24,245 bases of DNA from an uncultured Oscillospiraceae bacterium (GTDB taxonomy: Bacteria > Bacillota > Clostridia > Peptostreptococcales > Anaerovoracaceae): assembly GCA_964530755.1 (NCBI GenBank), contig CAZHBR010000003.1, positions 1,664 through 25,908 on the forward strand. The letters are read 5' to 3'. The stretch's first letter is position 1; each line of letters starts with the position of its first letter. Made by a program: the position numbers and the translations under genes. Shown piece after piece: positions 5,925 through 24,057 of this stretch. The notes under the pieces are model-generated. The model had not been told where the DNA came from, did no database searches, and worked only from the letters and a program-made list of their open reading frames with translations.

Positions 5925-6889
5925 ACACCTTAATAGCCGTGGATAAAAGCTCCTCCTTTCGAATTTATCTTGCCGTAACGACAAAGATGGCAGAGAATGC
6001 AAGAAAGGTGCATGATACGTCCCCCTTGGCATCAGCAGCTTTAGGACGCGTCCTGACCAGCGCCGGACTTATGGGGATAATGCTTTTAAAGGATAAAAAG
6101 GATAAGTTAACAGTGCAGTTTAAAGGTGACGGCCCTGCAGGGGAGATACTTGCTACGGCAGGCTCAACGGGTAAGGTTAAAGGTTATATTTCGAATCCTA
6201 TTGTGGATTTGCCTTTAAAACCGGATGGGAAGCTCGATGTCGGAACAGCCTTAGGCAAAGGTACAGTCACCGTCATTCGGGATAGCGGGCTTAAGGAACC
6301 TTATATGGGGCGAATAGATATGGTCAGCGGGGAGATAGCCGAGGATTTGACCGCCTATTTCTTTTTGTCTGAGCAACAGTCGACTTCGGTGGCGCTGGGT
6401 GTAAAAATTGGAAGAGATTGCAGCGTGATAGCGGCCGGCGGTATGATAATACAGATGCTGCCCGATAATGACCCTTTATCTGTAGGTGCGCTTGAACATC
6501 TTCTTGCAAATCTTCCTCCTCTTACGGATCTAATAGAAGAAGAATCGAAAAAGGAAACACCTTTGGCCATTCTGTCAGGTCTGGCGGACAGAATATTTCT
6601 GGAGCTGCCAAAAGAATATAGGCCCGAGATTCTTGAATATAAAAATATGGAGTGGGATTGCGATTGTTCTTTTGAAAGGTTGGAGCGTGTATTGCTTTCT
6701 CTGGGGGAAAAGGAGCTAAGAACCATTTTGGAGGAGGATGGTCAGGCGGAATTAGTCTGTCAGTTTTGCAGAGGCAAATACCATTTTGATAAGGAGCATC
6801 TTGCGATGCTTTTACGGGTGGCGGTTAAATCAAAGGAAATCATGGAAGGGAAAAGAAAATGCTCAAGGAATTCAAGGAATTCGCCCTAA
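5921..6889 (+). CDS. hslO: Hsp33 redox-regulated chaperone (about 322 aa)
   Basis: 'HDTSPLASAALGRVLT', 'GDGPAG', 'SGEIAEDLTAYFFLSEQ', zinc motif CDC...CQFC. Start moved from 5909 to ATG 5921, which overlaps the pgm stop (ATGA). Confidence 0.95.
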   Translation: MNTLIAVDKSSSFRIYLAVTTKMAENARKVHDTSPLASAALGRVLTSAGLMGIMLLKDKKDKLTVQFKGDGPAGEILATAGSTGKVKGYISNPIVDLPLKPDGKLDVGTALGKGTVTVIRDSGLKEPYMGRIDMVSGEIAEDLTAYFFLSEQQSTSVALGVKIGRDCSVIAAGGMIIQMLPDNDPLSVGALEHLLANLPPLTDLIEEESKKETPLAILSGLADRIFLELPKEYRPEILEYKNMEWDCDCSFERLERVLLSLGEKELRTILEEDGQAELVCQFCRGKYHFDKEHLAMLLRVAVKSKEIMEGKRKCSRNSRNSP

Positions 6890-7278
6890 AGGGTAATGTG
6901 ATCGATCTGGCAGTGGGCATAATCATAGGGGGAGCTTTCGGCAAAATAGTTTCCTCGCTGGTTAACGACTTGATAATGCCTTTAATGGGCTATATTACGG
7001 CCGGAACGGATTTTACGAGTCTGAAGATAGTTCTGTCGAAGGCTGTTATAGAAGGGACCGAGGTTATAAAGCCGGAGGCTTCTATCATGTACGGCAACTT
7101 CCTGCAGACCCTGCTGGACTTTTTAATAATTGCATTTTCTATTTTCATCGCCATTCGCATGATCAATAAAGTAAGAAGGAAGCAATCGGATTCTTCCGAA
7201 GAACCCGTAACAGAGCCTCCGGCGCCGACAGAGGCGGAACTTCTTGTTGAGATCAGGGATATATTAAAGAACAGATAG
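6859..7278 (+). CDS. mscL: Large-conductance mechanosensitive channel (139 aa)
   Basis: MLKEFKEFALKGNVIDLAVGIIIGGAFGKIVSSLVNDLIMP, YGNFLQ and ELLVEIRDIL. Confidence 0.97.
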   Translation: MLKEFKEFALKGNVIDLAVGIIIGGAFGKIVSSLVNDLIMPLMGYITAGTDFTSLKIVLSKAVIEGTEVIKPEASIMYGNFLQTLLDFLIIAFSIFIAIRMINKVRRKQSDSSEEPVTEPPAPTEAELLVEIRDILKNR

Positions 7279-7309
7279 CAGTGTGTGACAGAAAGTTGAG
7301 AAATATTGA

Positions 7310-8367
7310 ATGATCAAATTGGGCATCTTATTCGGAGGAAGATCGGGTGAGCATGAAATTTCCCTCATGTCCGCCGCCTCGGTTATAAAGGCGGCAGCTA
7401 AGGATAAGTACAGGGTTGTTCCAATCGGGATAACAAAAAAAGGTGACTGGCTGATCTATGAGGGACCGGTAGAGAACATAGAGGATGGAAGCTGGCAGCA
7501 GATGGCGGAAGCGGCTCTTGCCGCGGATCCTGAAAAATATGAACTGGCGGTTATAGGAAACGGCAGAAGCTCCTTGAAGGGGCGCATAGATTTTGCATTG
7601 CCCATACTGCATGGACCCTACGGGGAGGACGGAACAATACAGGGGCTTTTTGAAATGCTCGATATCCCTTACGGGGGATGCGGTGTTACAGGTTCAGCCT
7701 TGGCTATGGATAAGATATTGGCAAAAACAGTTTTTGCTAAAGAAGGTCTGCCTCAGGGTCCTTATATCTTTGTCCTTTCAGAAGAAATCTTAGAGGATTA
7801 TGAGGGGGCAGCGGCATCTATTGAACAGGCTTTTCCTTATCCGGTATTCGTTAAACCCGCTAACATGGGGTCAAGCGTAGGCATTTCCAAGGTCAAGGAT
7901 AAAAAGGGTTTAAGATCGGCTCTCACAGAAGAATAATTGTGGAAAAATCTATTGATTGCAGAGAGTTAGAAGTTGCAATTCTGGGTAACTATTATGCAGA
8001 GGCCAGCGGAGTGGGTGAGATAATTCCCTCCGAGGAATTCTATAATTATCACGCTAAATATTTTGACGGCGGAAAATCCAGGCTGTGCATACCCGCCGAC
8101 ATAACTTCAAATGAGGAGCGCCAGATTAAAGACATAGCGTTAAAGGCTTACCGCCTTCTGGATTTGAGCGGTTTTGCCAGAGCAGATTTCTTCCTAGAAA
8201 AGGAAAGCGGGAAAATATACATCAACGAGATAAATACTATCCCCGGGTTTACAAGGTTCAGCATGTTTCCGATGCTTTGGGAGCATTCGGGGCTTTTATA
8301 CCCGGAATTAATAGAAAGGATTGTAGCATTGGGATATGAAAGATATAATGCTAAAAATCGTGGGTAA
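7310..8367 (+). pseudogene. ddl: D-alanine--D-alanine ligase split by a frameshift near 7925-7936 (ORFs 7310-7936 and 7939-8367)
   Basis: N half: GGRSGEHEISL, LHGPYGEDGTIQG, MDK, FVKPANMGSSVGISKV. C half in the -1 frame: IIVEKSIDCRELEVAILGN, FYNYHAKY, RADFF, NEINTIPGFT. In-frame TAA at 7934-7936. Confidence 0.9.
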
Positions 8368-8806
8368 GCAACTGTACGGGTTTTCAGATGAAGAAAACCA
8401 GCTGGAATTTGTAACTGAGGGTAAATTTTACGAAAAAGAGGACTCAGTCTATTTGCTTTACGATGAAAGCAAGGTTTCAGGCATGGAAGGCTGCACCACC
8501 AGACTTAAAATCACAGGAGACAAAGTGCAAATGCAGCGAAAAGGAGATCTGGTTCCCCTTGATACAGAGATTGAATTTGAAAAGGGGAAGCGATTTACCG
8601 GCTATTACAACACCGTTTTTGGAGCGGTGGAAATGGAGGTCCTTACAAACGATGTGGTAAATAAAATCGATAAAGCGGAGGGGAAAGGAACCCTGGACAT
8701 CGATTACCACATAAGCCTTAGGGGTCTTTCAGAGGGAAGGAGCCGCCTTGCCATAGAGGTTTTGGACCAACAGCATTTGCAGGAGGGGCTTTCCAAGAAT
8801 GAGTAG
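8336..8806 (+). CDS. DUF1934 (YwiB-like) family protein (156 aa)
   Basis: 'EFVTEGKFYEKEDSVYLLYDES..SGMEGCTTRLKI' and 'YNTVFG..EMEV' pattern of the beta-rich DUF1934 family. Confidence 0.75.
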   Translation: MKDIMLKIVGKQLYGFSDEENQLEFVTEGKFYEKEDSVYLLYDESKVSGMEGCTTRLKITGDKVQMQRKGDLVPLDTEIEFEKGKRFTGYYNTVFGAVEMEVLTNDVVNKIDKAEGKGTLDIDYHISLRGLSEGRSRLAIEVLDQQHLQEGLSKNE

Positions 8807-10247
8807 AAACATGGTGAGGAAGATAGCCAAGATCATAGCTTGGACCTTGGCAGTTGCTTTAGTGGTCACATCGTTTACCTTCATGTTCTCCTTTGGGGGA
8901 GAAGCTGTATACGGTGCTGTTTCAGACGGCACCATTAATAGTGGTTTGATGGAGGAAATCGCCAGCGAGATAGAGGAGCACTATAAGGATGAAGCAGATA
9001 TAAAAAGGATTCTTGATGGAGCATATAAAGGGATGATTGAAGCTTTGGATGACCCCTACAGCGTTTATTATTCATCGTCTGAAGAAAGGGGCAGCTTCGA
9101 GGAATCCGTAAGCGGAGAATATTCGGGGGTGGGGCTTCACCTGGAGAGCTTTTTTGGCGCATGCCGGGTTGCAGCCCCTTTGCCGGGCTCACCCGCGAAA
9201 AAGGCGGGTATATCCGCAAAGGATATAATCGTGGATGTTGACGGAATCAACGTATCAAATGTGTCGCTTGATGCTGTTTCTTCTATGCTAAGAGGCAAAG
9301 AAGGAACAAAGGTAACTGTAACGGTATTAAGAGACAACGTAAGCATATCCTTTGATCTTGTAAGGGAAAAAATTAATACTGTATCGGTTCATTTTGAAAT
9401 GCTTCCGCACGATATAGGTTATATAAGAATTGACAGCTTCGATGGGGATTCCCATATAGAATTTAAAAATGCAAAACTGCAGCTCATAGCAAAAGGGGCA
9501 AAAGGCTTTATAGTGGATGTGAGGGATAATCCCGGCGGTTACGTGGATGTGGCCTGCGCAATTGCAGAGCAGATGATGCCGAAAGGACCCATAGTACATT
9601 TTGAAAGAAGAGGTGCTGTAACCGGAACTGTAGAGGCCGATGGCAAAGGAGATCTGAATATTCCCCTGGTGTTGCTTGTTAATGGCGGCTCTGCCAGCGC
9701 ATCGGAGATATTGGCTGCGGCCTGGCAGGACAGCGGTACGGCCGCGCTTGTTGGAACTGTTACCTACGGCAAGGGCGTGGCCCAGCAGATTATCCCTTTA
9801 AAAAATGGCGGTTCAATAAAGCTTTCCACCCTCTATTTTTTAACGCCCGATAAAAGATCCATTAACGGTAAAGGGTTAAACCCGGATTATCACATTGATT
9901 TCAAAATCGAAGACAGTGCAAAAGAACTGCTTGCACGCTATAAATCCTTTGCGCCCATGTCGGAGAAGGTAAAACCGTCTTTGGGCTCTGTGGGTCTGAA
10001 CGTTTACGGGGCAAAGCAGCGCCTTTCGATGCTTGGCTATCCTGTGGCTGTAAACGGCAACATGGATGAGAGCACTGCAGCGGCTGTAAAGGCATTTCAA
10101 AAAACATGCGGGCTTTATCCTTACGGTGTGCTAGATTATTCAACCATGTATGCGTTAGATGAGGCGGTCTTGTCTTTTATAAGCGCCGACAGCCGGGATG
10201 TTCAGCTTGATAAAGCGGTAGAAGTATTGATGTTTCAAACTGAATAA
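8799..10247 (+). CDS. ctpA: S41A carboxyl-terminal processing protease with N-terminal membrane anchor, PDZ domain and C-terminal peptidoglycan-binding domain (482 aa)
   Basis: [11 protein letters not shown] '[14 protein letters not shown]', DVRDNPGG, catalytic SASASE and TYGKG; PG_binding_1-like '[21 protein letters not shown]'. Confidence 0.88.
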
Positions 10248-11743
10248 AGGTTGTTTGTCTGATATTCCGGATCGCTTGTGGCATCTATGCCAAGATCTTT
10301 CAGTGTCTGGGCGTCCCTGTCGCTTAGAATGGCCGTGCAGTGGGCCTTGCATCCCACAAGAAGCAGAAGCTTTTCAACAGCGACTTGGGCGGAGGGGTTG
10401 GTCGTAGCCGATATTGTCAGTGCAGTCAATATTTCCTCGCAGTTAAGCGAGGATTTTTCATGATTAAGTATGTCCGTTTTTAGATGCTGTATCGTCTGGA
10501 GCACAGCAGGAGAGATGAGGTGGATTTCATCGGCTATTCCAGATAGAATTTTTATTGCGTTCAAAACTGCCGCGGCGGCTGCCACCATCCTCCTTGAACT
10601 TCTTCCGGTTATGATTGACCCGTCAGGAAGCTCTAAAGCCATGACGACTACATTTTCGTATTTCGGATTCGACGAACGTTTTATCTCCAGATAATCCCTT
10701 GCGGGCATAACCACCAAGCGGTCTTCTATCCGCAGATCCAGCTCATCCATCAGGATTTTGCTTTTAGCTACAGCATCCTCGTCGATTATGCCTTTTTTAT
10801 AATCGCAAAGGGCGATCAGATATCTGCGAATGATTTCTTGGCAGGCCGCCTCTTTGCATATCTCATCGTTGATTATGCTGAATCCTGCCCTGTTTACCCC
10901 CATGTCCGTAGGCGAAAGATATTCTGAGGGCTTCCTGGTTATTTTCTCTATTATCCTTTTGACAACCGGAAATACTTCCATATCCCTGTTGTAGTTTATC
11001 GCTGTTTGCCCATGGGCCTCCAAATAAAAGAAATCGATCATATTTACATCTTTAAGATCTACTGTGGCAGCTTCATATGCCATGTTCACCGGGTGCTTAA
11101 GGGGCAGGTTCCAGATGGGAAAGGTCTCATATTTTGCATAGCGCACCTTGCGACCCAACAAGTTTTCATGGTATAGCTGTGAAAGACAGGTGGCTAATTT
11201 ACCGCTGCCCGGCCCAGGGCCGTTTACGACTACAAGGGGCTTTGTTACCTCTACAAAGGGATTTCTTCCATAGCCCTCTTCACTTACTATAGTATCAACG
11301 TCCGTGGGATAACCTTTAGTGACGTAGTGCTTATATGTTTTAATTCCTCTCCGGTTGAGTTTATTGATGAAAATATTTACCGCGGGATGATCCTGGTATC
11401 TTGTTATTACGACGCTGTTTATCGGCAGTTCATATTTTCTGAATGTGTCTATCAGTCTGAGCACTTCCAGATCATATGTGATTCCGAAGTCGGCGCGGGT
11501 CTTCGTAGTTGTTATGTCTCCGGCATATATGCAGATGATAACCTCCGCTTCGTCTTTAAGTTTATTAAGTACTTTTATTTTTGCGTTTTCATCGAAGCCG
11601 GGGAGAATTCTCATTGCGTGCTTATCGTGGACGAGCTTTCCTCCGAACTCCAGGTAAAGACGTTCGCTTTCGTCGCAATTAATTCGCTCTAAAATGTATT
11701 TTGACTGCTCTTCTATATATTTTTCAGTATCAAACCCAATCAT
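10235..11743 (-). CDS. DUF1846 (UPF0371) family P-loop protein (about 502 aa)
   Basis: '[28 protein letters not shown]', P-loop [38 protein letters not shown]. Start placed at ATG 11743 (AAGGA upstream) rather than 11809. Confidence 0.88.
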
Positions 11744-11814
11744 CACAAAATCGTATCCTTTCCAAAGATTCCGCATTATATCCGAACTATTGAATGGTCT
11801 GTTCAACATTCCCT

Positions 11815-11843
11815 ATTTTAGCAGGTTTTTAAACCGCGAACAA
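11815..11843 (-). promoter_or_regulatory. SigmaA-type promoter of the DUF1846 gene
   Basis: Minus strand TTGTTC-N17-TAAAAT with extended -10 TG. Confidence 0.5.
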
Positions 11844-11888
11844 GGCAAAGACTAAGAATTAACAGATTACATATTTTGTAAATAACTG

Positions 11889-11916
11889 TTGACAAAGCCC
11901 TGCCCGCTGTTAGAAT
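11889..11916 (+). promoter_or_regulatory. SigmaA-type promoter of the SLH/giant-protein operon
   Basis: TTGACA-N16-TAGAAT with extended -10 TG. Confidence 0.65.
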
Positions 11917-11957
11917 GTAATTATATGGATTTATTGTATGTAAATAGGGAGGCAGGT

Positions 11958-12941
11958 ATGTTAAATGTTAAAAAGATATCGGTGATCCTTTGCCTTATTG
12001 TTCTTTCATCGAGTGTTTCAGCGTCCGCACTGGCAAGGAATTTTTTAGATGTGGGAGTTAGCCATTGGGCACATCAGGAGATCGAAAAAATGTCCGGTCA
12101 GGGCATAATTTCAGGTTATCCGGATGGAAGCTTCAGGCCTGATCTGCAGGTGACCTGCGGGGAGTTCATAAAAATGGCGGTAGGTCTTTTGCCTAAAACC
12201 GTGGATCCTGAGCCCGGATCTCACTGGGCGATGCCATATTATAACGCCGGAATAGAAATGTCCTTATATAGCAGCTACGATATAAGTCCTAAAGCCCTTG
12301 ACAGACCTATTAAAAGATCTCTTATGGCGTTGATAGGCGGAAGCATGTTGGAGGCGGGGAGTTTTCGCCTGTCTTCGACCGAATACAGCAAATGCCTTGA
12401 CAGCATTAGGGATGTTAACAGCAAAACTCCTTATGAATCCTTCATCGTCAAATCATATGCAAAAGGCATACTGGCAGGATACCCTGACGGGACATTCCGC
12501 CCAAATGCGATGCTTAACAGGGCGGAGGCTGCACTCGTTATACATCGGCTCAAAGAAAACCTTTCTTTTTCGAATGATGCGGTAAATGAGAGGGATTCCT
12601 GCATCGCAATCGAGAAGGAAAGCGATATATTTCCTTCAGGGACCATCACATTAACGGTTATAGATTACGAAAAGGATAAGGATACAAAGCATAAAGAGAT
12701 TAGGCAGTTGCTTCTTCAGCACAGTCCTCTTATCGGAGAGGAAATATACTCTGCTTTGCTGGACTTTGGAACAAAGCCCCTTGGATTGGGCAGGCAGGGT
12801 ATGCGGAAGCAATGCTTCGGCGATGTTCCCGTATTGATGGAAAGGCTCGATACCACTCTTCGCATATTCATTTTACCTAAGGGATATGAAAACCCCTTTT
12901 GGGAGACAGGTCCCGATGAAATTAATGAAGAATTTTTCTAA
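11958..12941 (+). CDS. Secreted S-layer homology (SLH) domain protein with an unknown C-terminal domain (about 327 aa)
   Basis: Signal peptide ending ASA-LA; SLH repeats 'FLDVGVSHWAHQEIEKM..GIISGYPDGSFRPD' and 'GILAGYPDGTFRPNAMLNRAEAAL'. Start set at ATG 11958 after RBS GGGAGG. Confidence 0.88.
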   Translation: MLNVKKISVILCLIVLSSSVSASALARNFLDVGVSHWAHQEIEKMSGQGIISGYPDGSFRPDLQVTCGEFIKMAVGLLPKTVDPEPGSHWAMPYYNAGIEMSLYSSYDISPKALDRPIKRSLMALIGGSMLEAGSFRLSSTEYSKCLDSIRDVNSKTPYESFIVKSYAKGILAGYPDGTFRPNAMLNRAEAALVIHRLKENLSFSNDAVNERDSCIAIEKESDIFPSGTITLTVIDYEKDKDTKHKEIRQLLLQHSPLIGEEIYSALLDFGTKPLGLGRQGMRKQCFGDVPVLMERLDTTLRIFILPKGYENPFWETGPDEINEEFF

Positions 12942-12956
12942 ATGAAAGGAAAGGCA

Positions 12957-15900
12957 ATGAATAGGAATGTTAATATCTGTGTTTCGGTATTTATATTTGC
13001 GGTGCTTTTGTCAGTCTGTACTTGTGTTGCCTTTGGCGATCAGGCGGTTTACAAGACCTTCGATCAGATGAGCCGGGATGAGAAGCAAAGGGCCCTTTGC
13101 CATTTGATAGAGGAAGGCACCGTTTTATCCTTTATTCGTGCAGGCGGCGGCACCTATCAATTAAACGAAGGCCTATGGTATGAAAAGGGCATAATCGTCT
13201 ACGGCGATACGGCCGCCATCAACGCTTTTGTCCAGACGACAGCTTCTTCGAACTTCAAGGATGGTAGGTACCGGTATTGGGGCTATGATATAAATGGAGG
13301 TTTGTATGGAAACGATGATTTTCCAAGAGACAGCGATTCAGGCATCCCCTCTTGGCAAAAGAACTGGCTTGCCATAGAGGAAATACGCCTAAACAGCACG
13401 GCGAGAGGATATGTAGGGCAATTTGCGATGAATTCCGGATTTTCCGAAAGCCTTAAATGGGATACGGCAAAGGCTTTTCTTGACAGCAATCCTCAATTCA
13501 GGCAGGGGGGCATGGATGAACAGTTTATTCTTGATCATTTCTATTTTAATGCTGTCATAAGCGAGGAGGGCTTAACAAACGGCCAGTTCATCGGCGTGCA
13601 TATTTCACGCTTTGATAATCGCCTGTATTATCAGACCTTTTCCGTGTCGGTAGCGACGAGGCTATTTGTGGTCCCGCCGCCCGAGGAACCTTCAAATGAC
13701 GGGGAGCAGCCGGTTATTCCCGAAGAGGATTTGCCTTGTGAAACAATGTGTTCTTTATCACTTCCTGCCTTCACGTATGAAGGGCATCCTGTCCTTGCTT
13801 TAGATGCTTCGCTTTTTACGTTCGACGGCGAGATTTGGTCGGCTTCGCGCACCTATGAAAATAATTTGGCCAGCAATCGCTTTTCTGCTGTATCCGGGGG
13901 CCGTGTATCTCGCATCTCTCCAATCAGAGCCGAAGCAGTTTTTAATGACTGCGGGAGCTATCAGGTGAGGCTTACCGTTTGTCCCAACGGCGGCGGAGAG
14001 CTTCATGACATCAAAGAGATATCAGTTTTGCCGACCCCTGCTATAACGCACAGTCTGACAGGTACAAGAAAACAAAACAGAAAGCAGGTTCTGAATGTGG
14101 ATGTGGCTGCCCACCCGAATTATCCCATAGAAGAGGTACAAATAAAGCTCATGTGTCCTTCCACGGGAGAAACAGTTACCCTTTACAGGGAGCATAGTGA
14201 AAATGGGGATACGATTAAGACAAGACCTGTAGAATTTCTTTCGTCTGATGAATATTCCGAATCCTTGAGATTGGAGTTTCTTACTAAGAATTCGGAACCC
14301 AGGGATTACTGCTATTATGTATATGTTAAGGACAGCCGGGGCCACGAGGACAGCATCAGCGTGGATTTTTCGGTCGTTCCGGATCTGCCCCCCTTTCCAG
14401 CTATAAACATGGAATCCTTTTTTATCAGAGAAGAGGGCTCTGATAAGGCTAATATAATTGTCGAGGATGGAACTGTTACTGACGGCGATCAGATTAACAG
14501 AGGATGGTATTATCTGGCAGATGCAGAGGAAAGCGAAACGCCTTGCAGTTTTTCCGATTGGGAGGATTTATCCCAAATGGAAGGATACAAGGACCTTTCT
14601 TTCGGCACAGGGAAAAAAGTCCAATTCAACAGGGAAGGTGTGGGTCCTTTTCTGATAGGCCTTCGGGCAGAGGATGTTTGGACAGAGGGGACGCTGAAAG
14701 AATACATTACGGAGGGTGATTATCTTGCAGCAGAGGCCGTAGGCGGAGGCGATGTTATAAATATAGCTCCAAGGGTAAGCCTGTCTCCCGTAAGGAGGCA
14801 GCCGATGGATATCACCGTTTTAACCGGCGGCAGCACAGAATACGATCATGCGATTGAAAATCGGGGATTGCTGGAACAAAATCTTCTCGCCTTTGGAATT
14901 GACCCCAAAATCCGTATAGAAAAAATGAGCCCCGCTTCGTTGGAGCCGCAAGGCACCGCGGCAGAATTTTTAATGGAGGCGGATACCCCCTTCGGTTATG
15001 AGGGAGGCTGGACATTTTACGAGAATCGCAACTTCATAGTCGATGACGAAAAGCTCTATAAGATAGATGCTGCATGGGAGGGTGCAGGATCCGGCATTTA
15101 TCCGGGTTCCCCTTACACCATATCCTGTTTTGAGGCAAGAACAGGAGGGCAGGTATTCAGCACTGCTTTTGACGACGATTTTTTTGCTGTGCCAGATAAC
15201 GGTCCTTACCTTGCCCAGGATGAGCAGGGACGGTATTTGTTTTTCATTTCCGCAGGGCGAACCTTGATCATCTCAAAGGACAATGGTTCTATTCTCACAG
15301 CCTTGGATTTTGAAACCGGAAATAATATCACAGTTGGAAAGGAAAGCATCTACTGTATAAAAAATGACGGGATCTACAGGGTTAATATGCAAACGGGGGG
15401 GATTGATAAGATTTACAATGGCAAAAGCAGCGGAGTGATCAGAACGATAGAGGGCAGGGTACACTTTCTGGGAATCGGCGGTACAACCTTGTACAGGGGG
15501 ATATTCGATCCGGATAAAGAGCTGGTCACGCTGGAACGCCTTTTAGATGAAAAAGCAAACAGCGGTCAATCCTCATTCAAGGCGCTGGGCATCGATACTA
15601 CGGGTAAACTGATAGTTAACGTATTTACTCCGCAAGGAACATCATATATAAGTGAAACAAGGATTTACGGGCGGGATAATAAAATGATCCGTTCGGTATC
15701 TATGCAGGACTCCTCCTCCTATACCTATACTGTCACCCCCGTTTACAGCGCAAGCGGTATTTGCAGCTATGTAGCCTATACTTACGATTCAAGAAGCGGT
15801 TCCTATTATTATGGAAACGCCAGGCTTTTTGCTGTTGACAGCGACTGCTTTGCGACATTATCCGTAAGCGATAAGGAGGGATATCCTACGAACACCGATC

Positions 15901-18900
15901 AGGTGATATTTGCCAGGGAATTAGACGGGAAAGTCTATCTGGCTACAGGCGCCGAGTGGTGCTACATACTTTACACAGGCAGCTACAATAACGGTCCCGC
16001 CCACGGATTGCCTGAGAGGACAAAAGTTTTCGTATTTGATCCCTCTAATGACAGCGGTAGCATGGGAACCGTCGATCAGCTTGGAATGAACATCGTTACA
16101 AGGGAATACGGGTTGAGCTCAGATTCTTTATCGGCTATCCAGACCGGAAATAATCATATCGGATTGACCTATGGAAATGAAACAATAGTGACAACCTGGG
16201 CCCAGGATATTTACGATGTTTTGGAAAGATGTGTGAACAGATACCTTCACGATGAAAAGGGCCGGGGCGCCTTAATTATTTACGATGAGACAAACCCCCG
16301 GCACATTTACTCCGAAGATCTTTTGGGCTTCATCGGTGAAAGGGCTGAGAGTAAAAATTGCAGGCTCATCATGGCCGATCGTTTTTTAATAGAGGACAGT
16401 TTAGCTCTTGCAAATGAAATAACGGCTGCAGCTGAGGAAGGAGCGAATGTTTTGGGGATTTATGCAGAAACAGATGGGGGTTCAATAAGCAGGGCATTAG
16501 ATCTTCTTGCCGATACCACATATTATTACGAGTATGAGGTTAAACGGGCGGACGGAGAAATTTCAGATTCATTCAGCTTTATTCCGAGCATAAACGGATC
16601 ATCCGTAAAACCTTCAGGTTTTCAGGTCATATCTTCACATTTTGAAAGCTTTGACGGGGGGGATATAAATACGTTTTTCACGCTTGATTCTCCAAGGATA
16701 CATGAGGGCGTGTATAAAGGCGGGAATGTCTGCAATCGCCAGGGGAGCAATTGGAGCAACCGTTATTTCTCGGACAGCAGCGTCATCACATTCGATATTC
16801 CAAGGGGGCACAAGGCTGTTTTGTCATTTGACTGGGAGACATATATGGACAGCCAGGCGCTTTGGACGGCAAGCTTCGCGGAGATCAACGGGGAAATGTG
16901 GCATGAATTTACCCCTGATTATAAAGGGGAAGGTTCATATTGCCATCCATTTCTGCTTTCGGAAGGTAAAAATGCGCTTAAATTCTATGCCAGGGCCTAC
17001 GGAGGAAAAGAGACTGTTGCAAAGATGTGGATAGATAACCTGAGGCTCGATATCCTGGCGCCAGGCGCAGCGGAGGATCTGCCTTTGCCGGAGACTTTAA
17101 GCATTGAACCTCTGTCCTTGGGCTTTAATCTAATAAAGGGCAGCTTTCGCACACCTATGCCTTCGGGGGCATATAGGGAAATAAATGAAGCGGAAATAAT
17201 TGAAGGATCCCTTGGCGCGGCTCCTTATACATCTGCATCCCGCTGGGACCCCGGAGATAAGGAAGCTAAATACGCAATCCCCTTAGATAAAACAGCGGTA
17301 ATGACGCTCCTTTCGACATCCTCAAGGCCTGTTGTCTATAACGACAGGGGCTATAATGTTACATACAGCTGGGGCGGTTATTCGTGGTATTGTTGTCCGA
17401 GAAACGATTACCCTGAAAGCGCAAGAAACAACATCCCCTCCGATTATCGGATACCTTTGCCGGCCATGGCGGGGACCCAGACTTTTAAGATGAAATCGTC
17501 GGATTACAGGGGTGCGACGGGAAGCATAACCGGCATAGAATCGATTTTAGTTGGTACCTCCATGGATTCTATAAAGGACATGAGATTCTTTATTTCCGAT
17601 CAGGGAATGGGGAAAAGGGCCTATCTTGAAACGGATATCTTCGGCAATCGAGGCGACGTTGGATTAGCGCTCCCCAGGGGGGAGAGCTTTTTGAAGAACC
17701 TAAATATTTATACATATCAAAACGGATCAAAAGTATATGCCGTAAAGGAAGCATTTTCCGACCCCGCCGCTATACTTAAATGGCAGGCGGTGGAGGCCGA
17801 TGCAGCGATCATAAAGGGTACGGGGATTGAGGATTGTAATGGGGAGAGCCTAATCTACAAAAAAGGTGAAACGGTGGATTTCAACATATCATACTATGAT
17901 TATGAAGGAGATCCTTCAAAAAAACAGTACTGGAAATATACGCACACTCCGGGAAACGACGGACCTCATCCGGAGGCTTCGGTCGTATTGGACGAGCAGG
18001 ATAATCCGGTGTCAATTACGGATAATGTGCTGTCGGAGCCGATTAAAACATTCTATATAGACGGTAAATACACTGTGGAGCATTGGCAGGAGGACAACAC
18101 GAAAAGACCCCCTACGCCTTACGGAAATCCCGATTACGATAAGTGTTCAAACGTAGAAATTATTACTTTTTATATAGAAGGAGGGGGCACGGGTCCCTGG
18201 ATTGAATCCATCAGGACCGTTCCTTCTGCTGTGATCGAGGGAAGCGATTACGAAATAGAAGTCAGAGTCAATGATGCCGAAAAGGATGTGCTGGACCTTA
18301 AGGTCGAAGTTTATAAAGAACGCAGGCTTTTGTTCAGTTACAATAAACAGGGCATTGCTGCAGACAGCGGCGGCTTCTATGCGCCTGTTCTGATACCCTC
18401 TTCTTTTCCTGCCCTGCCTGGAAGCTATGAAATCATATGCACTGTTAAAGATGAAGACGGTACGGGAATGGGCTCAATGAGATTTGCTGTGCTGTCTGCC
18501 GGGAAAATTACCGGCTCAGTTTCCCACACTGATTTATGGGATGATAATCGGAAGAAATATAACCTCTTCTATTTCCTGGAGGAATATAATCAGGAATCTG
18601 ATGCTTCATACATAAAGACGCCTGTTCCAAGAAAAAGAGGGGTAAATGTATTTTGGCCAGGGGAGCGTTTCCTATTGTGCGCCTGCGCAGCAGGGGATCC
18701 GGAATCGGTCACTGTTACCATAGCAGACCGCGGAGATTACAAGGCAGTTCTTGAAAAGACAGGGGAAAAGAATCAAAAAGGGGAATCGCTTTACAAAGGT
18801 GTGCTATGGGATCCCTCCATGCGTTACCTGTGGGGTGTTAAAGACCCGAAGGCTATAACATTTAATTTTGTCGCGAACTACGGTGCTTTTGAAAAATCTG

Positions 18901-18962
18901 ACGATGTCTTTGTCATAATGGATGGAACTGATGAATACTGGCAGCTTCACCGCCTGTTTTAG
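12957..18962 (+). CDS. Giant secreted multi-domain surface protein, putative adhesin (about 2001 aa; ORF open from 12942)
   Basis: Uninterrupted 6-kb ORF; signal peptide 'MNRNVNICVSVFIFAVLLSVCTCVAFG'; Pro-rich linker PPPEEP; beta-rich PKD/Ig-like segments; no SLH, LPxTG or C-terminal TM. The N-terminal 'YRYWGYDINGGLYGNDDFP' resembles the Athe_2463-type domain (recalled, unverified). Confidence 0.8.
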   Translation: MNRNVNICVSVFIFAVLLSVCTCVAFGDQAVYKTFDQMSRDEKQRALCHLIEEGTVLSFIRAGGGTYQLNEGLWYEKGIIVYGDTAAINAFVQTTASSNFKDGRYRYWGYDINGGLYGNDDFPRDSDSGIPSWQKNWLAIEEIRLNSTARGYVGQFAMNSGFSESLKWDTAKAFLDSNPQFRQGGMDEQFILDHFYFNAVISEEGLTNGQFIGVHISRFDNRLYYQTFSVSVATRLFVVPPPEEPSNDGEQPVIPEEDLPCETMCSLSLPAFTYEGHPVLALDASLFTFDGEIWSASRTYENNLASNRFSAVSGGRVSRISPIRAEAVFNDCGSYQVRLTVCPNGGGELHDIKEISVLPTPAITHSLTGTRKQNRKQVLNVDVAAHPNYPIEEVQIKLMCPSTGETVTLYREHSENGDTIKTRPVEFLSSDEYSESLRLEFLTKNSEPRDYCYYVYVKDSRGHEDSISVDFSVVPDLPPFPAINMESFFIREEGSDKANIIVEDGTVTDGDQINRGWYYLADAEESETPCSFSDWEDLSQMEGYKDLSFGTGKKVQFNREGVGPFLIGLRAEDVWTEGTLKEYITEGDYLAAEAVGGGDVINIAPRVSLSPVRRQPMDITVLTGGSTEYDHAIENRGLLEQNLLAFGIDPKIRIEKMSPASLEPQGTAAEFLMEADTPFGYEGGWTFYENRNFIVDDEKLYKIDAAWEGAGSGIYPGSPYTISCFEARTGGQVFSTAFDDDFFAVPDNGPYLAQDEQGRYLFFISAGRTLIISKDNGSILTALDFETGNNITVGKESIYCIKNDGIYRVNMQTGGIDKIYNGKSSGVIRTIEGRVHFLGIGGTTLYRGIFDPDKELVTLERLLDEKANSGQSSFKALGIDTTGKLIVNVFTPQGTSYISETRIYGRDNKMIRSVSMQDSSSYTYTVTPVYSASGICSYVAYTYDSRSGSYYYGNARLFAVDSDCFATLSVSDKEGYPTNTDQVIFARELDGKVYLATGAEWCYILYTGSYNNGPAHGLPERTKVFVFDPSNDSGSMGTVDQLGMNIVTREYGLSSDSLSAIQTGNNHIGLTYGNETIVTTWAQDIYDVLERCVNRYLHDEKGRGALIIYDETNPRHIYSEDLLGFIGERAESKNCRLIMADRFLIEDSLALANEITAAAEEGANVLGIYAETDGGSISRALDLLADTTYYYEYEVKRADGEISDSFSFIPSINGSSVKPSGFQVISSHFESFDGGDINTFFTLDSPRIHEGVYKGGNVCNRQGSNWSNRYFSDSSVITFDIPRGHKAVLSFDWETYMDSQALWTASFAEINGEMWHEFTPDYKGEGSYCHPFLLSEGKNALKFYARAYGGKETVAKMWIDNLRLDILAPGAAEDLPLPETLSIEPLSLGFNLIKGSFRTPMPSGAYREINEAEIIEGSLGAAPYTSASRWDPGDKEAKYAIPLDKTAVMTLLSTSSRPVVYNDRGYNVTYSWGGYSWYCCPRNDYPESARNNIPSDYRIPLPAMAGTQTFKMKSSDYRGATGSITGIESILVGTSMDSIKDMRFFISDQGMGKRAYLETDIFGNRGDVGLALPRGESFLKNLNIYTYQNGSKVYAVKEAFSDPAAILKWQAVEADAAIIKGTGIEDCNGESLIYKKGETVDFNISYYDYEGDPSKKQYWKYTHTPGNDGPHPEASVVLDEQDNPVSITDNVLSEPIKTFYIDGKYTVEHWQEDNTKRPPTPYGNPDYDKCSNVEIITFYIEGGGTGPWIESIRTVPSAVIEGSDYEIEVRVNDAEKDVLDLKVEVYKERRLLFSYNKQGIAADSGGFYAPVLIPSSFPALPGSYEIICTVKDEDGTGMGSMRFAVLSAGKITGSVSHTDLWDDNRKKYNLFYFLEEYNQESDASYIKTPVPRKRGVNVFWPGERFLLCACAAGDPESVTVTIADRGDYKAVLEKTGEKNQKGESLYKGVLWDPSMRYLWGVKDPKAITFNFVANYGAFEKSDDVFVIMDGTDEYWQLHRLF

Positions 18963-18990
18963 GGCGCCGCGGAAATAAATTTTCAATTAC

Positions 18991-19020
18991 AGGGCATGAA
19001 TCGATTATGATTCGTGCTCT
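18991..19020 (+). terminator. Stem-loop after the giant gene, probable terminator
   Basis: AGGGCATGAATC-GATTAT-GATTCGTGCTCT forms a 12-bp stem with two G-U pairs, followed by GTTCTT. Confidence 0.55.
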
Positions 19021-19146
19021 GTTCTTACATGCGATATTGTGTCTGGAAATTGCATATCACTAAAATTATTTTTTCTCCCATATGGTTTGTTCTTGGTCGA
19101 TTAAGTGCTATAGTATACTAAAAAGACGCAATAATATTGGTGGGCT

Positions 19147-20085
19147 ATGGAAAATCTAATCATATCGTTTAATGCTGTTTCGCCCATGTTTATCATCATG
19201 CTTTTAGGGGCGCTGATCAAATGGAGGAAGATGATAAGCCGCAAGACCGGGACACAGCTCAATAATTTGGCATTTAGGATTTTCATTCCTGTTTTATTGG
19301 TATACAGTATATACAGTACCGATTTAAGGGAAATATTGCAGGTTAAGCTGATCGTGTTTACCGTTTTATCTGTGACCTTGATGTGGCTTGTGTCTGCATT
19401 GCTGATTATGAAGATTGAAAAAACAAATACTGCAAGGGGTGCGATGATCCAGGGGATGTGTCGGAGCAACTACGTTCTTTTTGGATTGTCGCTTTTAATT
19501 AATTTATACGGGGTTGACAATATAGGCATACCCAGTCTGATTGCAGCCGTAGTCCTGTTGCTTTTTAACGTATTGTCTGTAATAACTCTTGAGGTTTTTC
19601 GTGACAGCAAGGTTGAAATAAAAGAAATAGCGTTGGAGGTTTTAAAAAATCCCCTGATTATTGCAGTGGCAGCAGGTATCATGATATCGCTGCTGCATAT
19701 ACGCCTTCCGCTGTTTATTGAAAACACCGTAGCAAGCTTATCTGGGATGGCTATGCCGATCGCGCTTGTGGCGATGGGGGCGTCGCTTAGTTTTGACAAG
19801 GCGTTTATTAATTTGAAAAACATTGTGACAGTTATCGTGGGAAAGCTGATCGTAATACCCCTTATTTTCGTTCCTGCTGCTATATTCCTCGGATTTCGCG
19901 GCATTGAACTGACATCGCTTATGGTTATGTTTGCCTCACCGACAGCCGTAACGACGTATACTATGGCTGATCAAATGGAAAGCGATGCGAATCTGGCATC
20001 ATCCATAGTGATTTTGTCAACGGTTTTGTCCTGCTTTACTATGTTCTTTTGGATATTTTCTATAAAGCAGATCGGTATGATTTAA
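19147..20085 (+). CDS. AEC (auxin efflux carrier / malate permease-like) family transporter (312 aa)
   Basis: 'AFRIFIPVLL', 'RSNYVLFGLSL', 'LKNPLIIA', 'PIALVAMGASL', 'SPTAVTTYTMA' and 'LASSIVILST'; about 10 hydrophobic segments. Confidence 0.9.
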   Translation: MENLIISFNAVSPMFIIMLLGALIKWRKMISRKTGTQLNNLAFRIFIPVLLVYSIYSTDLREILQVKLIVFTVLSVTLMWLVSALLIMKIEKTNTARGAMIQGMCRSNYVLFGLSLLINLYGVDNIGIPSLIAAVVLLLFNVLSVITLEVFRDSKVEIKEIALEVLKNPLIIAVAAGIMISLLHIRLPLFIENTVASLSGMAMPIALVAMGASLSFDKAFINLKNIVTVIVGKLIVIPLIFVPAAIFLGFRGIELTSLMVMFASPTAVTTYTMADQMESDANLASSIVILSTVLSCFTMFFWIFSIKQIGMI

Positions 20086-20089
20086 TTCA

Positions 20090-21094
20090 TTAACCGCTAT
20101 CCGACTGTGTAGGATTTAAAAGGCCCCTTGGGTGCTTCATCGCAAGTATTTTCTTTTTTTGCTCATCTGATGTGTGCAGATAAATTTGAGTTGTCGATAT
20201 GGAGCTGTGTCCCAGAAAATCCTGAATGTATTTAATGTCTACTCCGGATTCTAGCAGCAAGGTTGCAAATGTATGCCGAAAGACGTGGGGCGTAATATTC
20301 TTTTTTATGCCGGAAAGCCTTGTGTATTTTGCTATAATATTTCTGACACCCTGTGAACTCATGGGCTTTAAATGGCGCGTGATAAAAATATGGGATATGT
20401 CGCAGCCTGCAGCACTTCTCATCAGAATGTAATTGTCGAATGCTGCAATTGCCTCGGGAGTTGCTATAAACAGGGTTCTTTCTTTATTGCCCTTTCCGAT
20501 GATCCGAAGCGATCGGTTTTCGTGTTCGTAATCTGAAAAAAGCAGATTGCATAGCTCCGACACCCTTATTCCTGTTGCAAACAGCAGTTCAATAATTGCC
20601 AGATCCCTGCACCAGAAAAATTCACCCGAAGTAACAGATATCTTATCCGTTTCCTTATTTCGCAGCGTTTTTAAAAGGATATTGGCGGATTTTGAAAAAG
20701 GATCGAGGTAGACCACCTGCAAAAAGGTGTTCATATCCTTTAATGTCATGCTCCGTGGTATCCTGCGTCCCTCTTTCATGTTGACCCGAAATTCTTCAAA
20801 AGGACTGTTTGATACGATTCCTGCATATTTTAAATATGTAAAAAATGAATTTAGCGATGCCATTTTACGTTTAACCGTTTTAGCTTTATGAATTTTAGCC
20901 ATATGTCCAAGATATTCACTCAAAATATTCTTTGTAATTTGATCTGGGTAAGCAAGTGAAGGATGATGCCGTTTAAGATATGTTAGAAAAAAGGACATAT
21001 CAAAGCGATAGCTTGTAACTGTATTTTCAGACAACCGCCGCTGATACATGCAGTATTCTAAAAAGGGATCAGCTAATTCCTTAATCTGTTTCAT
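20090..21094 (-). CDS. XerC/XerD-like tyrosine recombinase (about 334 aa)
   Basis: N-terminal SAM-like 'FLEYC..QRRLSENTVTSYRFD'; complete catalytic set R (TGIRVSEL), K (GKGNKER), HxxR (HVFRH), H (LGH), Y (TTQIY). Start set at ATG 21094 after a perfect RBS GGAGGTGG. Confidence 0.92.
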   Translation of the reverse strand: MKQIKELADPFLEYCMYQRRLSENTVTSYRFDMSFFLTYLKRHHPSLAYPDQITKNILSEYLGHMAKIHKAKTVKRKMASLNSFFTYLKYAGIVSNSPFEEFRVNMKEGRRIPRSMTLKDMNTFLQVVYLDPFSKSANILLKTLRNKETDKISVTSGEFFWCRDLAIIELLFATGIRVSELCNLLFSDYEHENRSLRIIGKGNKERTLFIATPEAIAAFDNYILMRSAAGCDISHIFITRHLKPMSSQGVRNIIAKYTRLSGIKKNITPHVFRHTFATLLLESGVDIKYIQDFLGHSSISTTQIYLHTSDEQKKKILAMKHPRGLLNPTQSDSG

Positions 21095-21122
21095 AAATAC
21101 CACCTCCGGGCGCAATATACAT

Positions 21123-21151
21123 ATTATACCATAACAGGTCACATCTGTAAA
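21123..21151 (-). promoter_or_regulatory. SigmaA promoter of the recombinase gene
   Basis: Minus strand TTTACA-N17-TATAAT with extended -10 TG, 29 bp upstream of the ATG. Confidence 0.7.
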
Positions 21152-21364
21152 CAGCAGGACATTTTCAGTTAAAAAGGGTGTTATGAAGCCTGTGAATCTG
21201 AATATATAATAGAATACGGCCTTGCTGTTTAGGGTGAGGGCTGCAACCATCTTATTATATATTTCGATGATGAAAAGCGGAGGCTGAATTCCGCAATGAT
21301 GAGCTGCCGATTTATACTCCTGCAATTAATTATTCAGATTTCTGACTTATAACGATAACCATAC

Positions 21365-21669: not shown

Positions 21670-24057
21670 ATGAGAAAAGTACTATCATTCGTATTGGTAC
21701 TGTCTCTCGTACTCGGAAGCTTCGGTATGGCTTTCGCAGCACCTCTGTCTGATATTGCAGGCGAGGAATGTGAAGATGCTGTTAACGTGCTTACCGATCT
21801 GGAAGTTGTGACCGGCTATCCCGATGGGGATTACAGACCGGATAACATCGTTACCAGAGCCGAGATGGCAGTCATTGTTGTAAGAGCCCTTGGCCTTGCT
21901 GACTATGCGGTAGGCACATCGAGCTTCAAGGACATGGCAGGACACTGGTCCAATGCTTATGTTGCTTATGCTACAGGCCTTGGGATCATTGACGGCTATC
22001 CCGACGGGACATTTAAGCCTGACAAGACAGTATCCTATGACGAAGCGGCAAAGATGCTTGTCGCGGCATTGGGTTACACCCCTGACAGCCTTGTAGGAAC
22101 CTGGCCCGCAAACTATGTGGTAAAGGCTAAGGCCCTCGGAATCCTTGATGGGATCAAAGCCGGTGTGGCGGGAGCCAATAGAGGCGACATCGCTATTATG
22201 GCTTTCCAGACGCTGGATACCAAAATCGGAAGCACCGATAAGGATGGCAAATGGACAGCAAATGATCCGGAAGACACAATGCTTGACAGGCTCGGAGCAG
22301 AGCTGTACAACGATGGTGATGCCTTTGTCGTAACAAATGACATTGCATTAGACGAATCCGTTATTAACCTGACTCCTTATCTTGGAGCATTCATTAAAGC
22401 CTATCAGAATTCCGATAAGGATATTATCGCAGTTAAGGAAGTTAAATCCGCATTCCTAACAGGTAGTGTAAAAGATAATGGTAAGTTTAAATCAGACGGT
22501 GTAGAGTATAATATTGCAGGTGCAGATTTCCATGATGGAACCACAGAAGGAGCCATTGAATTTGTAAACGGCGAAAACACAAGCACAGTTGCTGCAATTA
22601 CCACCAGTAGTGGAATCGTTACACTTGCTGCGAATGTATCCGGAAAAACGATTAAGGATGTATATTCTGTCAGTAAATGGACGGTCTCTGAGTCTGATTT
22701 CTTCAGTGCAGATGATGCTGCCGATATCAAGGCCGATAAGAAATTATTCGGACTTAAATTTGTAAAAGATGACAATGATGATATCGACTTGAATTCCTTT
22801 GCATTGTTTGGAGCAGCCTCGCTTGCAGATATTGAAAAAGATAGCGTGGTTTATGTTTATAAGAACGGGGCTAGTGAAATCACCAGAATCGAAGTGGGAA
22901 CCGAGGTTGTAACCGGGGAAAATACAAGAATTTCAGGTGATGACTTCACAATAAATGGTAAGGTATATGCATTTGCGGATAGTCAGAGTAGTAGCAGTAG
23001 CCATTATGTGCCAGCTAAGGCGGGTGACACGGTAAAGATTTCCCTTGACTATGCAGGCGATATTTATGAATGCGTCAAGGAAAAAGGTGGAGCCTCCAAC
23101 TATGCAGTTGTTCTTGATGTGAAAGACGGCAGCGAGGGATTTGCAGGAAGTGACGCAAAGATCAACCTGTTCTTAGCAGATGGAACTGAAAAGGCTTTCT
23201 CCGTTGATGAAGAAGAAGTGGCTTCAGTTAACGATACAAGTAAAAAATGGACTACCGAAGCTGCTTTCGACATTGGTGTAATTATTAAATGTGGCGTGGA
23301 TAAAAACGGGGTAATCGATGAGATTGTGACAATGAGTGCTATTACTGGAGATGATAAAATTTCTGCCAAAGGTCTTTATGAAACCCTTTATATTGCTAAC
23401 GATGCGGTAATATTTACCGCCACAACTATACCTGCGATATCAAAGAAGGCCGATGACTATGGTACTACTTCGTTAAATAAAATCTTGGATACTAAAAATG
23501 TTGTATCACAGTATATTGTAAAAGACGGAAAAATAGTCGCAATGATTCTGTATGACGATGTTGTTTCGACTGATGGTGTGTATGGTGTAGCTATAGATAG
23601 AGCATTGAACAATTCTTCTGAAGGTTACGAGATTACAATGCTACTTGGTAAAAACGAAACAACTAAAGATGCAAAAACAGCTGCTCATAGCGAGGCTGCA
23701 ACAACTAGTGCTCTGTATAAAGTGAACTTTACTACATCAGGTGATGTCATAAGCGGATTGGATGCCCAAGTCAGTGATATTACTGCAACGACGGTAGCTG
23801 GGTTAACAGTATCCTCTAATACAGTCAAAATTGCATCTATGTCTGGTATCACGACAGGCAGTAGTATAATAAAGAACGATACTATAAGCCTAGACAGTGA
23901 TGTTGTAGTATATGTATGGAGTACAAATGACACCTGTTATAAGATTGGGTCCGTCAGAGATATTGCAAACGCTAAAAATTCAGTAGAATTCTTTGATGTC
24001 TTAGGTGATGATGATGGGGCCTATGATTTCGTATTGGTTGATAACCCAGATGCTTAA
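21670..24057 (+). CDS. S-layer protein with N-terminal SLH domains (795 aa)
   Basis: Signal peptide ending AFA-A; SLH repeats 'VVTGYPDGDYRPDNIVTRAEMA' and 'GHWSNAYV..GIIDGYPDGTFKPD' plus a degenerate third; the remainder is a low-complexity D/T/S/V/A/K-rich beta-type region; strong RBS and tandem promoters. Confidence 0.88.
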   Translation: MRKVLSFVLVLSLVLGSFGMAFAAPLSDIAGEECEDAVNVLTDLEVVTGYPDGDYRPDNIVTRAEMAVIVVRALGLADYAVGTSSFKDMAGHWSNAYVAYATGLGIIDGYPDGTFKPDKTVSYDEAAKMLVAALGYTPDSLVGTWPANYVVKAKALGILDGIKAGVAGANRGDIAIMAFQTLDTKIGSTDKDGKWTANDPEDTMLDRLGAELYNDGDAFVVTNDIALDESVINLTPYLGAFIKAYQNSDKDIIAVKEVKSAFLTGSVKDNGKFKSDGVEYNIAGADFHDGTTEGAIEFVNGENTSTVAAITTSSGIVTLAANVSGKTIKDVYSVSKWTVSESDFFSADDAADIKADKKLFGLKFVKDDNDDIDLNSFALFGAASLADIEKDSVVYVYKNGASEITRIEVGTEVVTGENTRISGDDFTINGKVYAFADSQSSSSSHYVPAKAGDTVKISLDYAGDIYECVKEKGGASNYAVVLDVKDGSEGFAGSDAKINLFLADGTEKAFSVDEEEVASVNDTSKKWTTEAAFDIGVIIKCGVDKNGVIDEIVTMSAITGDDKISAKGLYETLYIANDAVIFTATTIPAISKKADDYGTTSLNKILDTKNVVSQYIVKDGKIVAMILYDDVVSTDGVYGVAIDRALNNSSEGYEITMLLGKNETTKDAKTAAHSEAATTSALYKVNFTTSGDVISGLDAQVSDITATTVAGLTVSSNTVKIASMSGITTGSSIIKNDTISLDSDVVVYVWSTNDTCYKIGSVRDIANAKNSVEFFDVLGDDDGAYDFVLVDNPDA

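Follow-up and report, generated by a model that had tools for sequence, protein, structure and literature searches.

A stretch of 24,245 nucleotides from an uncultured Oscillospiraceae bacterium (contig CAZHBR010000003.1; the whole stretch is called the window below) carries side by side a gene for a small secreted S-layer homology (SLH) protein of 327 residues, gene A, and a gene for a giant secreted protein of 2001 residues, gene B. Comparison of this pair with its relatives suggests, at a probability of roughly 0.6, that the C-terminal tail of A and the N-terminal head of B are a docking pair which follows the logic of cohesin and dockerin and tethers an anchorless giant protein at the cell surface. 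In the proposed mechanism, A and B would be encoded in one operon as a non-covalent anchor-cargo pair, and both proteins would be exported by Sec signal peptides. The SLH region of A would attach to the cell wall, and the tail of A (residues 199–327) would dock onto the head of B (residues 29–262), by which the protein of approximately 2000 residues would be held at the surface. A is needed as a tether in this mechanism because B has no anchor of its own. The coupling is placed in the tail and the head because their types co-vary, are swapped together and are lost together, and because the head is reused on another protein. We infer physical binding between tail and head, wall binding by the SLH region and surface retention of B from the observations described below.

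Protein A is composed of a signal peptide (approximately residues 1–26), an SLH region (approximately residues 28–198) and the tail. It has one N-terminal hydrophobic segment of the signal type and no further hydrophobic segment. The SLH family (PF00395) is detected by Pfam in two stretches with an E-value of 3.8e-23 and a score of 81.6 bits against a gathering cut-off of 20.8. The degenerate middle repeat, which has an HWA..YY motif, is kept in the relatives, though Pfam itself sees two repeats. In wall-binding SLH proteins generally, three tandem SLH repeats form a pseudo-trimer that binds a pyruvylated secondary cell wall polymer. The sequence-only reading of the window from which this work started had described A as SLH repeats followed by a C-terminal domain of about 115 residues. 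The repeats are found as described, but the domain is longer (129 residues). The tail gives no Pfam match when searched alone at E-values up to 10, SLH is the sole Pfam family in A, and neither cohesin (PF00963) nor an LPxTG-like motif is found in the protein. A lipobox ([LVI][ASTVI][GAS]C) is absent from the first 60 residues of both A and B.

The start of gene A is preceded by a ribosome-binding site (AGGGAGG), and an independent gene call on an identical public contig likewise gives a protein of 327 residues. A longer open reading frame (ORF) that begins at TTG 11889 was rejected as a gene; this TTG coincides with the −35 hexamer of the promoter-like site described later. The boundary between the two genes should be noted. 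The stop of A had been read as directly abutting the ORF of B. The TAAATG at 12939–12944 is genuine and in frame with B, but ATG 12957, which has its own ribosome-binding site (GGAAAGG) and is the start picked by the gene caller on the public contig, is probably the start of B rather than ATG 12942. The gap between A and B is 0 or 15 nucleotides, depending on this choice.

In protein B, hydrophobic windows are confined to residues 1–31, a segment of the signal type, and the C-terminus ends in EYWQLHRLF. Each of A and B opens with a single hydrophobic signal-type segment, in agreement with the sequence-only reading, which had described two signal-peptide proteins. That reading had also held that the giant protein has no SLH repeat, LPxTG motif, lipobox or C-terminal transmembrane segment, and that no cohesin or dockerin motif is present; both statements agree with our searches, which found no SLH repeat, LPxTG-like motif, lipobox or second hydrophobic segment in B, and in which Pfam detects neither cohesin nor dockerin in A or B. 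No Pfam family is found in B, searched whole or as three segments, the sole trace being a sub-threshold PQQ_2 match; dockerin (PF00404) is absent from the same searches. Among 24 relatives of B, Pfam gives nothing but PKD and PQQ_2 and no dockerin, and these signals are weak (PKD_4 in 7 of 24, PQQ_2 in 3 of 24). Searches of PDB sequences with B and with a profile of 24 sequences give nothing meaningful. The head contains the NCBIfam Athe_2463 domain (NF047340), which matches B with 77.9 bits (cut-off, 36) at residues 74–234 in the numbering of the 2006-residue form, over positions 1–177 of the 177-position profile. The homologues of B include 48 proteins of approximately 2000 residues with 30–52% identity, almost all of them without a name. 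Judging from the alignment columns, conservation in B is highest in its C-terminal third. Candidate roles for the part of B behind the head are those of an adhesin, a binding protein or a coat component.

To describe the pairing among relatives, we scanned for the giant gene at one genome per species and obtained 80 loci, which are numbered with the prefix L. The 58 loci with enough upstream sequence were taken as informative. The ORFs called at every locus were searched with whole A and B and with parts of each. The loci are mostly from Anaerovoracaceae or Eubacteriales Family XIII. Cultured carriers are Anaerovorax odorimutans DSM 5092, Clostridium aminobutyricum DSM 2634, Sinanaerobacter chloroacetimidivorans BAD-6 and Bacilliculturomica massiliensis Marseille-P3303. 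An A-type SLH ORF of 278–481 residues lies immediately 5′ of the giant gene and in the same orientation in 54 of the 58 informative loci. When sampling is reversed and starts from homologues of A, the giant gene is found directly 3′ in 5/5, with the synteny seen in the window; this sampling also gave one homologue of A with a different cargo (L087, described below). The sequence-only reading had named co-occurrence and adjacency of homologues as its check, and giant proteins that usually occur without the SLH neighbour as the finding that would speak against it. The counts from the giant gene and from the SLH gene both show the pair, and the neighbour is the rule. The upstream partners form a family of their own, since phmmer searches with A give E-values of 1e-28 to 1e-141 for them and 1e-4 to 1e-23 for the remaining SLH ORFs at these loci, where SLH genes are abundant (up to approximately 6 per 20 kb). 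The spacing between A and B in relatives ranges from a 52-nucleotide overlap to a 336-nucleotide gap, and the frame is not conserved. The adjacency of A and B is far from chance.

The variable parts of the two proteins are the tail and the head. In an alignment of 55 partner proteins, the SLH region (approximately residues 28–198) is conserved throughout and the C-terminal tail is variable. In B, most tblastn matches begin near residue 267, which indicates a variable head and a conserved core. Types of tail and head were defined as clusters from all-against-all blastp at E < 1e-4. There are 29 tails in t1, 14 in t2, 6 in t3 and 5 in t4, with one further tail left as a singleton, and 35 heads in h1, 15 in h2 and 5 in h3; the pair of the window counts among t2 and h2. 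The types correspond to each other: t2 occurs with h2, t4 with h3, and both t1 and t3 with h1. The t2 tail of the window clusters with 13 other t2 tails, all partnered by h2 heads. When profiles of different tail types, or of different head types, are compared by hhalign, no homology is detected (probability ≤35%), and the scores do not exceed those of control comparisons of tails with heads. We therefore abandoned the view that the tails, or the heads, make up a single diverged family. The h1 and h3 heads show no match to the Athe_2463 model.

The co-variation of tail and head was evaluated by partial Mantel tests on 53 pairs. The similarity of tails follows that of heads when the core and the SLH region are controlled for (r = 0.52, p ≤ 0.0005), and the corresponding value for tail against core is not significant (r = 0.05). 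In a tree of the B cores, the t4/h3 type is polyphyletic. Judging from these sequence comparisons, the co-variation of tail and head is not merely shared descent.

Individual loci indicate how the types are exchanged. At L045, the core is nearest to t2/h2 loci (46% identity), and the A gene and the head are nearest to t4/h3 loci. At L043, the SLH region and the core are nearest to the h1 lineage, and the tail and the head are of the t4/h3 type; a nearest-neighbour analysis by module shows that this tail-plus-head block is foreign to both its flanks. L040 and L053 are two loci of one Anaerovoracaceae metagenome-assembled genome (MAG). Their SLH regions are 95% identical in protein and 92–95% in DNA, and their cores are 94% identical in protein and 84–100% in DNA. 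Between these blocks, the tails are 43% and the heads 45% identical in protein, and tail, intergenic region and head form a single tract of approximately 1.45 kb with a DNA identity of approximately 50%. These comparisons show that the tail-plus-head stretch of approximately 1.45 kb is swapped as a cassette between the conserved SLH and core blocks. Anaerovorax sp. IOR16 carries two pairs on a single contig (L021 and L034), whose SLH regions are 91% identical, against 30% for the tails and 31% for the heads. If the docking reading holds, near-identical SLH regions with different tails in paralogous pairs imply the same wall ligand and different cargo. As a separate observation on L040 and L053, the last approximately 130 codons of the giant gene also diverge (L040, 12625–13010), where the DNA identity falls from approximately 99% to 34–72%.

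The tandem arrangement at L044 (698–16226; an uncultured Anaerovorax sp. MAG, CAUQTI010000003.1) should also be noted. Four A-type SLH genes lie there in tandem. Their downstream ORFs encode proteins of 399 and 411 residues that consist of the head and the first immunoglobulin (Ig)-like domain, a remnant of 114 residues, and, at the last copy, a full-length giant of 2050 residues. DNA identity among the copies is 86–96% in the SLH and Ig blocks, and the stretch lying between these blocks differs from copy to copy. This layout is as expected for recombinational cassette exchange and resembles a putative silent-cassette system of surface variation.

The head is also found apart from the giant core. 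At L087 (8001–10466; ENA ERZ28597154 scaffold_33), the gene behind that of an A-like SLH protein encodes a protein of 462 residues and not a giant. The first 225 residues of this 462-residue protein are an h1 head (E = 1.7e-26), and the rest matches no giant core. The neighbouring genes encode a topoisomerase, RadC, and ParA-like and ParB-like proteins, which suggests that this pair sits in a mobile element. In some members of the head family, the head is N-terminal on proteins of very different length (343–2661 residues).

The four exceptions among the 58 informative loci bear on the coupling of tail and head. The giants at L032, L036 and L057 have no head, their conserved core starting 55–115 residues past the initiator, and they have no partner gene; at L032 the flanking synteny is otherwise intact. 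Since L036 and L057 are close relatives, these cases amount to approximately two independent losses. At L029, the upstream ORF of 207 residues combines a t1 tail (hmmsearch, E = 6.5e-12) with a signal peptide but lacks an SLH region, and the partner looks like a cleaved secreted protein. A tail-bearing partner thus accompanies all 55 of the 55 head-bearing giants and none of the three headless ones.

A docking function of tail and head would explain the operon, the anchorless B, the discrete matched types and the limitation of exchange to the tail plus the head. It would also explain why head and partner are lost together and why a head recurs on another cargo. Several observations weigh against it. 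The loci are phylogenetically related, so that fewer independent events lie behind the counts than the figures suggest. Since tail and head are adjacent in the DNA, one recombination tract or linked diversifying selection could give their co-variation without contact, and DNA linkage does contribute to their co-inheritance. The conserved C-terminal region of B could itself bind the wall or the S-layer. The partner tail at L087 fits none of the four tail profiles, though the head of the cargo is h1. The tail-bearing partner without SLH at L029 means that wall anchoring by SLH is not universal for the partner. An orphan A-type gene with an SLH region and a t2 tail lies 3′ of the giant gene at L023 (8500–9495). 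What follows this orphan gene is not a second giant but a gene for a predicted multi-pass membrane protein of 400 residues.

A wider form of the docking reading can be put forward tentatively, its parts being taken jointly. Several mutually orthogonal tail-head docking pairs (at least four tail and at least three head types) with new folds and without detectable homology between the types would be moved as cassettes between the SLH and core blocks, tandem partial copies stored in some genomes, as at L044, could let the cell change or re-target its wall display by homologous recombination, and heads would be portable tags on other cargoes, as at L087.

The tail and the head might instead belong to a linked hypervariable region that has no docking function. 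They would then be the parts most exposed or most strongly selected, for instance as phage receptors or antigens, and B would be held otherwise, for example by binding of its conserved C-terminal region to the wall or the S-layer. Such a region is compatible with the contiguity of tail and head, with the unbroken variable tract that includes the intergenic region in L040 and L053, with the tandem copies at L044, as are known from surface-variation systems, and with the C-terminal third being the most conserved part of B. It leaves unexplained, however, why headless giants lack the whole A gene, why the head moves together with an SLH partner onto an unrelated cargo at L087, and why the tail is retained beside the giant after loss of SLH at L029. 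The types are moreover discrete and without detectable homology, not a continuum of drifted variants, and we consider this explanation unlikely.

It also seems improbable that the tail of A is a chaperone, a maturation factor or an inhibitor that acts on the head of B during or after export, with the SLH region serving only to localize this activity. Any specific pair of proteins would give the same co-variation and joint loss, and the partner at L029, with a tail and without SLH, indicates that the function of the tail is separable from wall binding. Against such a helper role, 54 of 55 partners keep the conserved SLH region, which is 91–95% identical between paralogous pairs and argues that wall attachment is central. 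B has no other recognizable anchor, and neither Pfam nor a fold search of PDB finds a protease, isomerase or chaperone signature in the tail.

That A and B are unrelated envelope genes which merely share an operon or a neighbourhood in an SLH-rich locus is very improbable. Though SLH genes are numerous at these loci, the arrangement is specific in position and strand in the 54 loci mentioned above, the upstream partners are a family of their own by phmmer, and the modules co-vary. An effect of sampling close genomes is at odds with the B cores, whose identity between relatives is as low as 28–30%. A single gene broken by a stop codon, that is, a split SLH-giant fusion or a read-through product, might be read from TAA 12939–12941 and the in-frame ATG 12942, but is refuted by the variable spacing and frame in relatives, by the two proteins with an N-terminal signal sequence each that every relative encodes, and by the separate ribosome-binding site and signal peptide of B.

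We built AlphaFold2 models of the two modules with family alignments. The tail is predicted as an alpha/beta domain with the order strand-strand-helix-helix-four strands (predicted local distance difference test (pLDDT), 86.5; predicted template modelling score (pTM), 0.79), and the head as a mixed alpha/beta domain (pLDDT, 88.3; pTM, 0.78). Foldseek searches with both models give no PDB match at E < 0.001, the template modelling scores being about 0.1–0.25, and the head model has no match at E < 0.001 in a library of viral structures. The head family is rare. An exhaustive profile search of 1.84 billion proteins gives 97 representatives at E ≤ 0.001; this search was used instead of a word-indexed homologue search, which gave six fragments with the head alone. 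Since cohesin and dockerin are not found and the predicted folds match no solved structure, the earlier proposal of a different, possibly undescribed adaptor-cargo pair stands, and the conserved pairing supports it further.

The proposed pair resembles the anchoring scaffoldins of the cellulosome. In Acetivibrio (Clostridium) thermocellum, SdbA, OlpB and Orf2p combine SLH repeats with type II cohesins that bind the type II dockerin of CipA. As in that system, a small SLH-anchored protein would display a very large anchorless protein, and a dedicated, type-specific pair of modules with several orthogonal specificity types would be used. The differences are clear at the level of the modules. Pfam finds no cohesin or dockerin here, and the tail of A is predicted to be alpha/beta, not a beta-sandwich. 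Unlike the dockerin, a calcium-binding repeat of 70 residues, the head of B is a predicted alpha/beta domain of 230 residues at the N-terminus of the cargo. The modules of A and B have no PDB match, and the genes for anchor and cargo invariably lie next to each other in a single operon. The host family, Anaerovoracaceae, is not known as cellulolytic.

SlpA of Clostridioides difficile is comparable in another respect. Its low-molecular-weight and high-molecular-weight subunits arise from one cleaved precursor and are joined by interaction domains, and the latter subunit is anchored by CWB2. Like SlpA, whose host belongs to the same order (Peptostreptococcales), the pair would have a wall-anchored subunit that non-covalently holds an exposed variable subunit, and the variable parts are exchanged as cassettes between strains. 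Unlike SlpA, A and B are two genes with two signal peptides and an SLH anchor; Pfam finds no CWB2 in A or B, and no PDB sequence or fold match indicates similarity to SlpA. In the archaeal Sulfolobales, SlaA and SlaB are encoded in a two-gene operon, and SlaB, the small subunit, is anchored by a transmembrane segment and accompanies a large anchorless subunit. A and B would be like this operon in having one small anchoring and one large anchorless subunit; no homology to it was detected, although no search aimed at it was made. The word two-partner in the sequence-only reading does not apply in the sense of TpsA/TpsB secretion, as Pfam finds neither a two-partner secretion domain nor an Omp85/POTRA transporter in A or B; the partner is an SLH protein, and the term is descriptive only.

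The sole experimental lead comes from Caldicellulosiruptor bescii, where the products of two neighbouring genes of one operon, Athe_2463 and Athe_2464, are extracellular and are induced together on xylan and xylose (PMC5865380). Athe_2464 is a predicted lipoprotein of 627 residues (supplement of PMC5865380). The head of B contains the Athe_2463 domain, and the lipoprotein Athe_2464 could be a membrane-anchored neighbour, though it is not an SLH protein. For the uncharacterized Athe_2463 domain, the proposed role as a docking module is a first functional lead.

A literature search found no published description of the A-B pair. An SLH adaptor with a docked cargo is known in principle; what seems new is the modules themselves, how diverse they are and how they behave as cassettes. 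Non-covalent display of an anchorless protein on an SLH scaffold has so far been documented mainly for cellulosomes, by cohesin and dockerin, and the same logic would be realized here with unrelated modules in poorly studied anaerobes of gut, sediment and digesters (Anaerovoracaceae or Family XIII). If the tail binds the head, the retention of a conserved class of surface proteins of 2000 residues would be explained, new and apparently orthogonal docking pairs would be available for surface display, and there would be a tangible example of an interface between proteins that is exchanged as a cassette. The cultured strains that carry the pair make the docking idea directly testable.

The positions of the features in the window are listed in Table 1.

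Table 1. Features of the A-B locus and its surroundings; positions are those of the window.
Feature	Position	Strand	Remark
DUF1846 gene, divergent from gene A	10235–11809	−	
Promoter-like site, sigma-70-like	11889–11916	+	TTGACA, 16-nt spacer with TG extension, TAGAAT; consensus match only
Gene A, secreted SLH protein of 327 residues	11958–12941	+	ATG 11958, TAA 12939–12941
SLH region of A, predicted to bind the wall	12039–12551	+	Degenerate middle repeat between two Pfam SLH repeats
Tail of A, type t2, proposed receptor module for the head of B	12552–12938	+	
Gene B, secreted giant protein of 2001 residues	12957–18962	+	Alternative in-frame ATG 12942
Head of B, type h2, proposed docking module	13041–13742	+	Residues 29–262
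NCBIfam Athe_2463 domain (NF047340) inside the head	~13161–13643	+	E = 1.3e-21
Core of B, conserved cargo block	13755–18959	+	PKD/Ig-like and PQQ-like beta-propeller signals in some relatives
Hairpin 3′ of B	18989–19022	+	14-bp stem, 6-nt loop, free energy −21.2 kcal/mol
Mem_trans transporter gene, between giant and S-layer genes	19147–20085		
Tyrosine recombinase gene, between giant and S-layer genes	20090–21325	−	Phage_integrase and SAM-like N-terminal domain
SLH protein of 795 residues, candidate S-layer protein	21670–24057	+	Pfam SLH, E = 4.6e-25

A single promoter ahead of the pair, a hairpin behind the giant gene and a shared locus with the S-layer gene had been noted before, and each has a counterpart in the table. 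The promoter-like site agrees with the consensus at 11 of 12 positions and has the top score within the 7.6 kb scanned (11700–19300). The U tract behind the hairpin is weak. Homologues of the non-SLH part of the candidate S-layer protein lie 3′ of the giant gene in approximately 10 related loci. In some relatives, far less sequence separates the giant gene from the S-layer gene. An invertible switch of A/B or of the S-layer gene by the neighbouring tyrosine recombinase was considered and dropped, as no convincing pair of inverted repeats was found for it.

Upstream of A, a conserved neighbourhood is found in the window (4107–11809) and at L082–L086. It contains genes for phosphoglucomutase, Hsp33, MscL, Ddl and DUF1934, followed by a CtpB-like S41 peptidase with a peptidoglycan-binding domain, the divergent DUF1846 gene, and then A and B. 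The divergent DUF1846 gene invariably neighbours gene A. The D-Ala-D-Ala ligase gene of the window is broken into two ORFs that lie in different frames (7310–7936 and 7939–8367). The split adjoins a AAAAAGGG run at 7901–7908, and relatives have one gene of 343–390 residues; the split ligase (7310–8367) reflects either a frameshift in the gene or an error in the assembly. At the other end of the window, a palindromic unit of 19 nucleotides, ACGGTGTCAGACACCAAAC, occurs in four copies at 24070–24245, inside a unit of 49 nucleotides that is repeated 127 nucleotides apart. These repeats begin just 3′ of the S-layer gene and extend to the end of the window.

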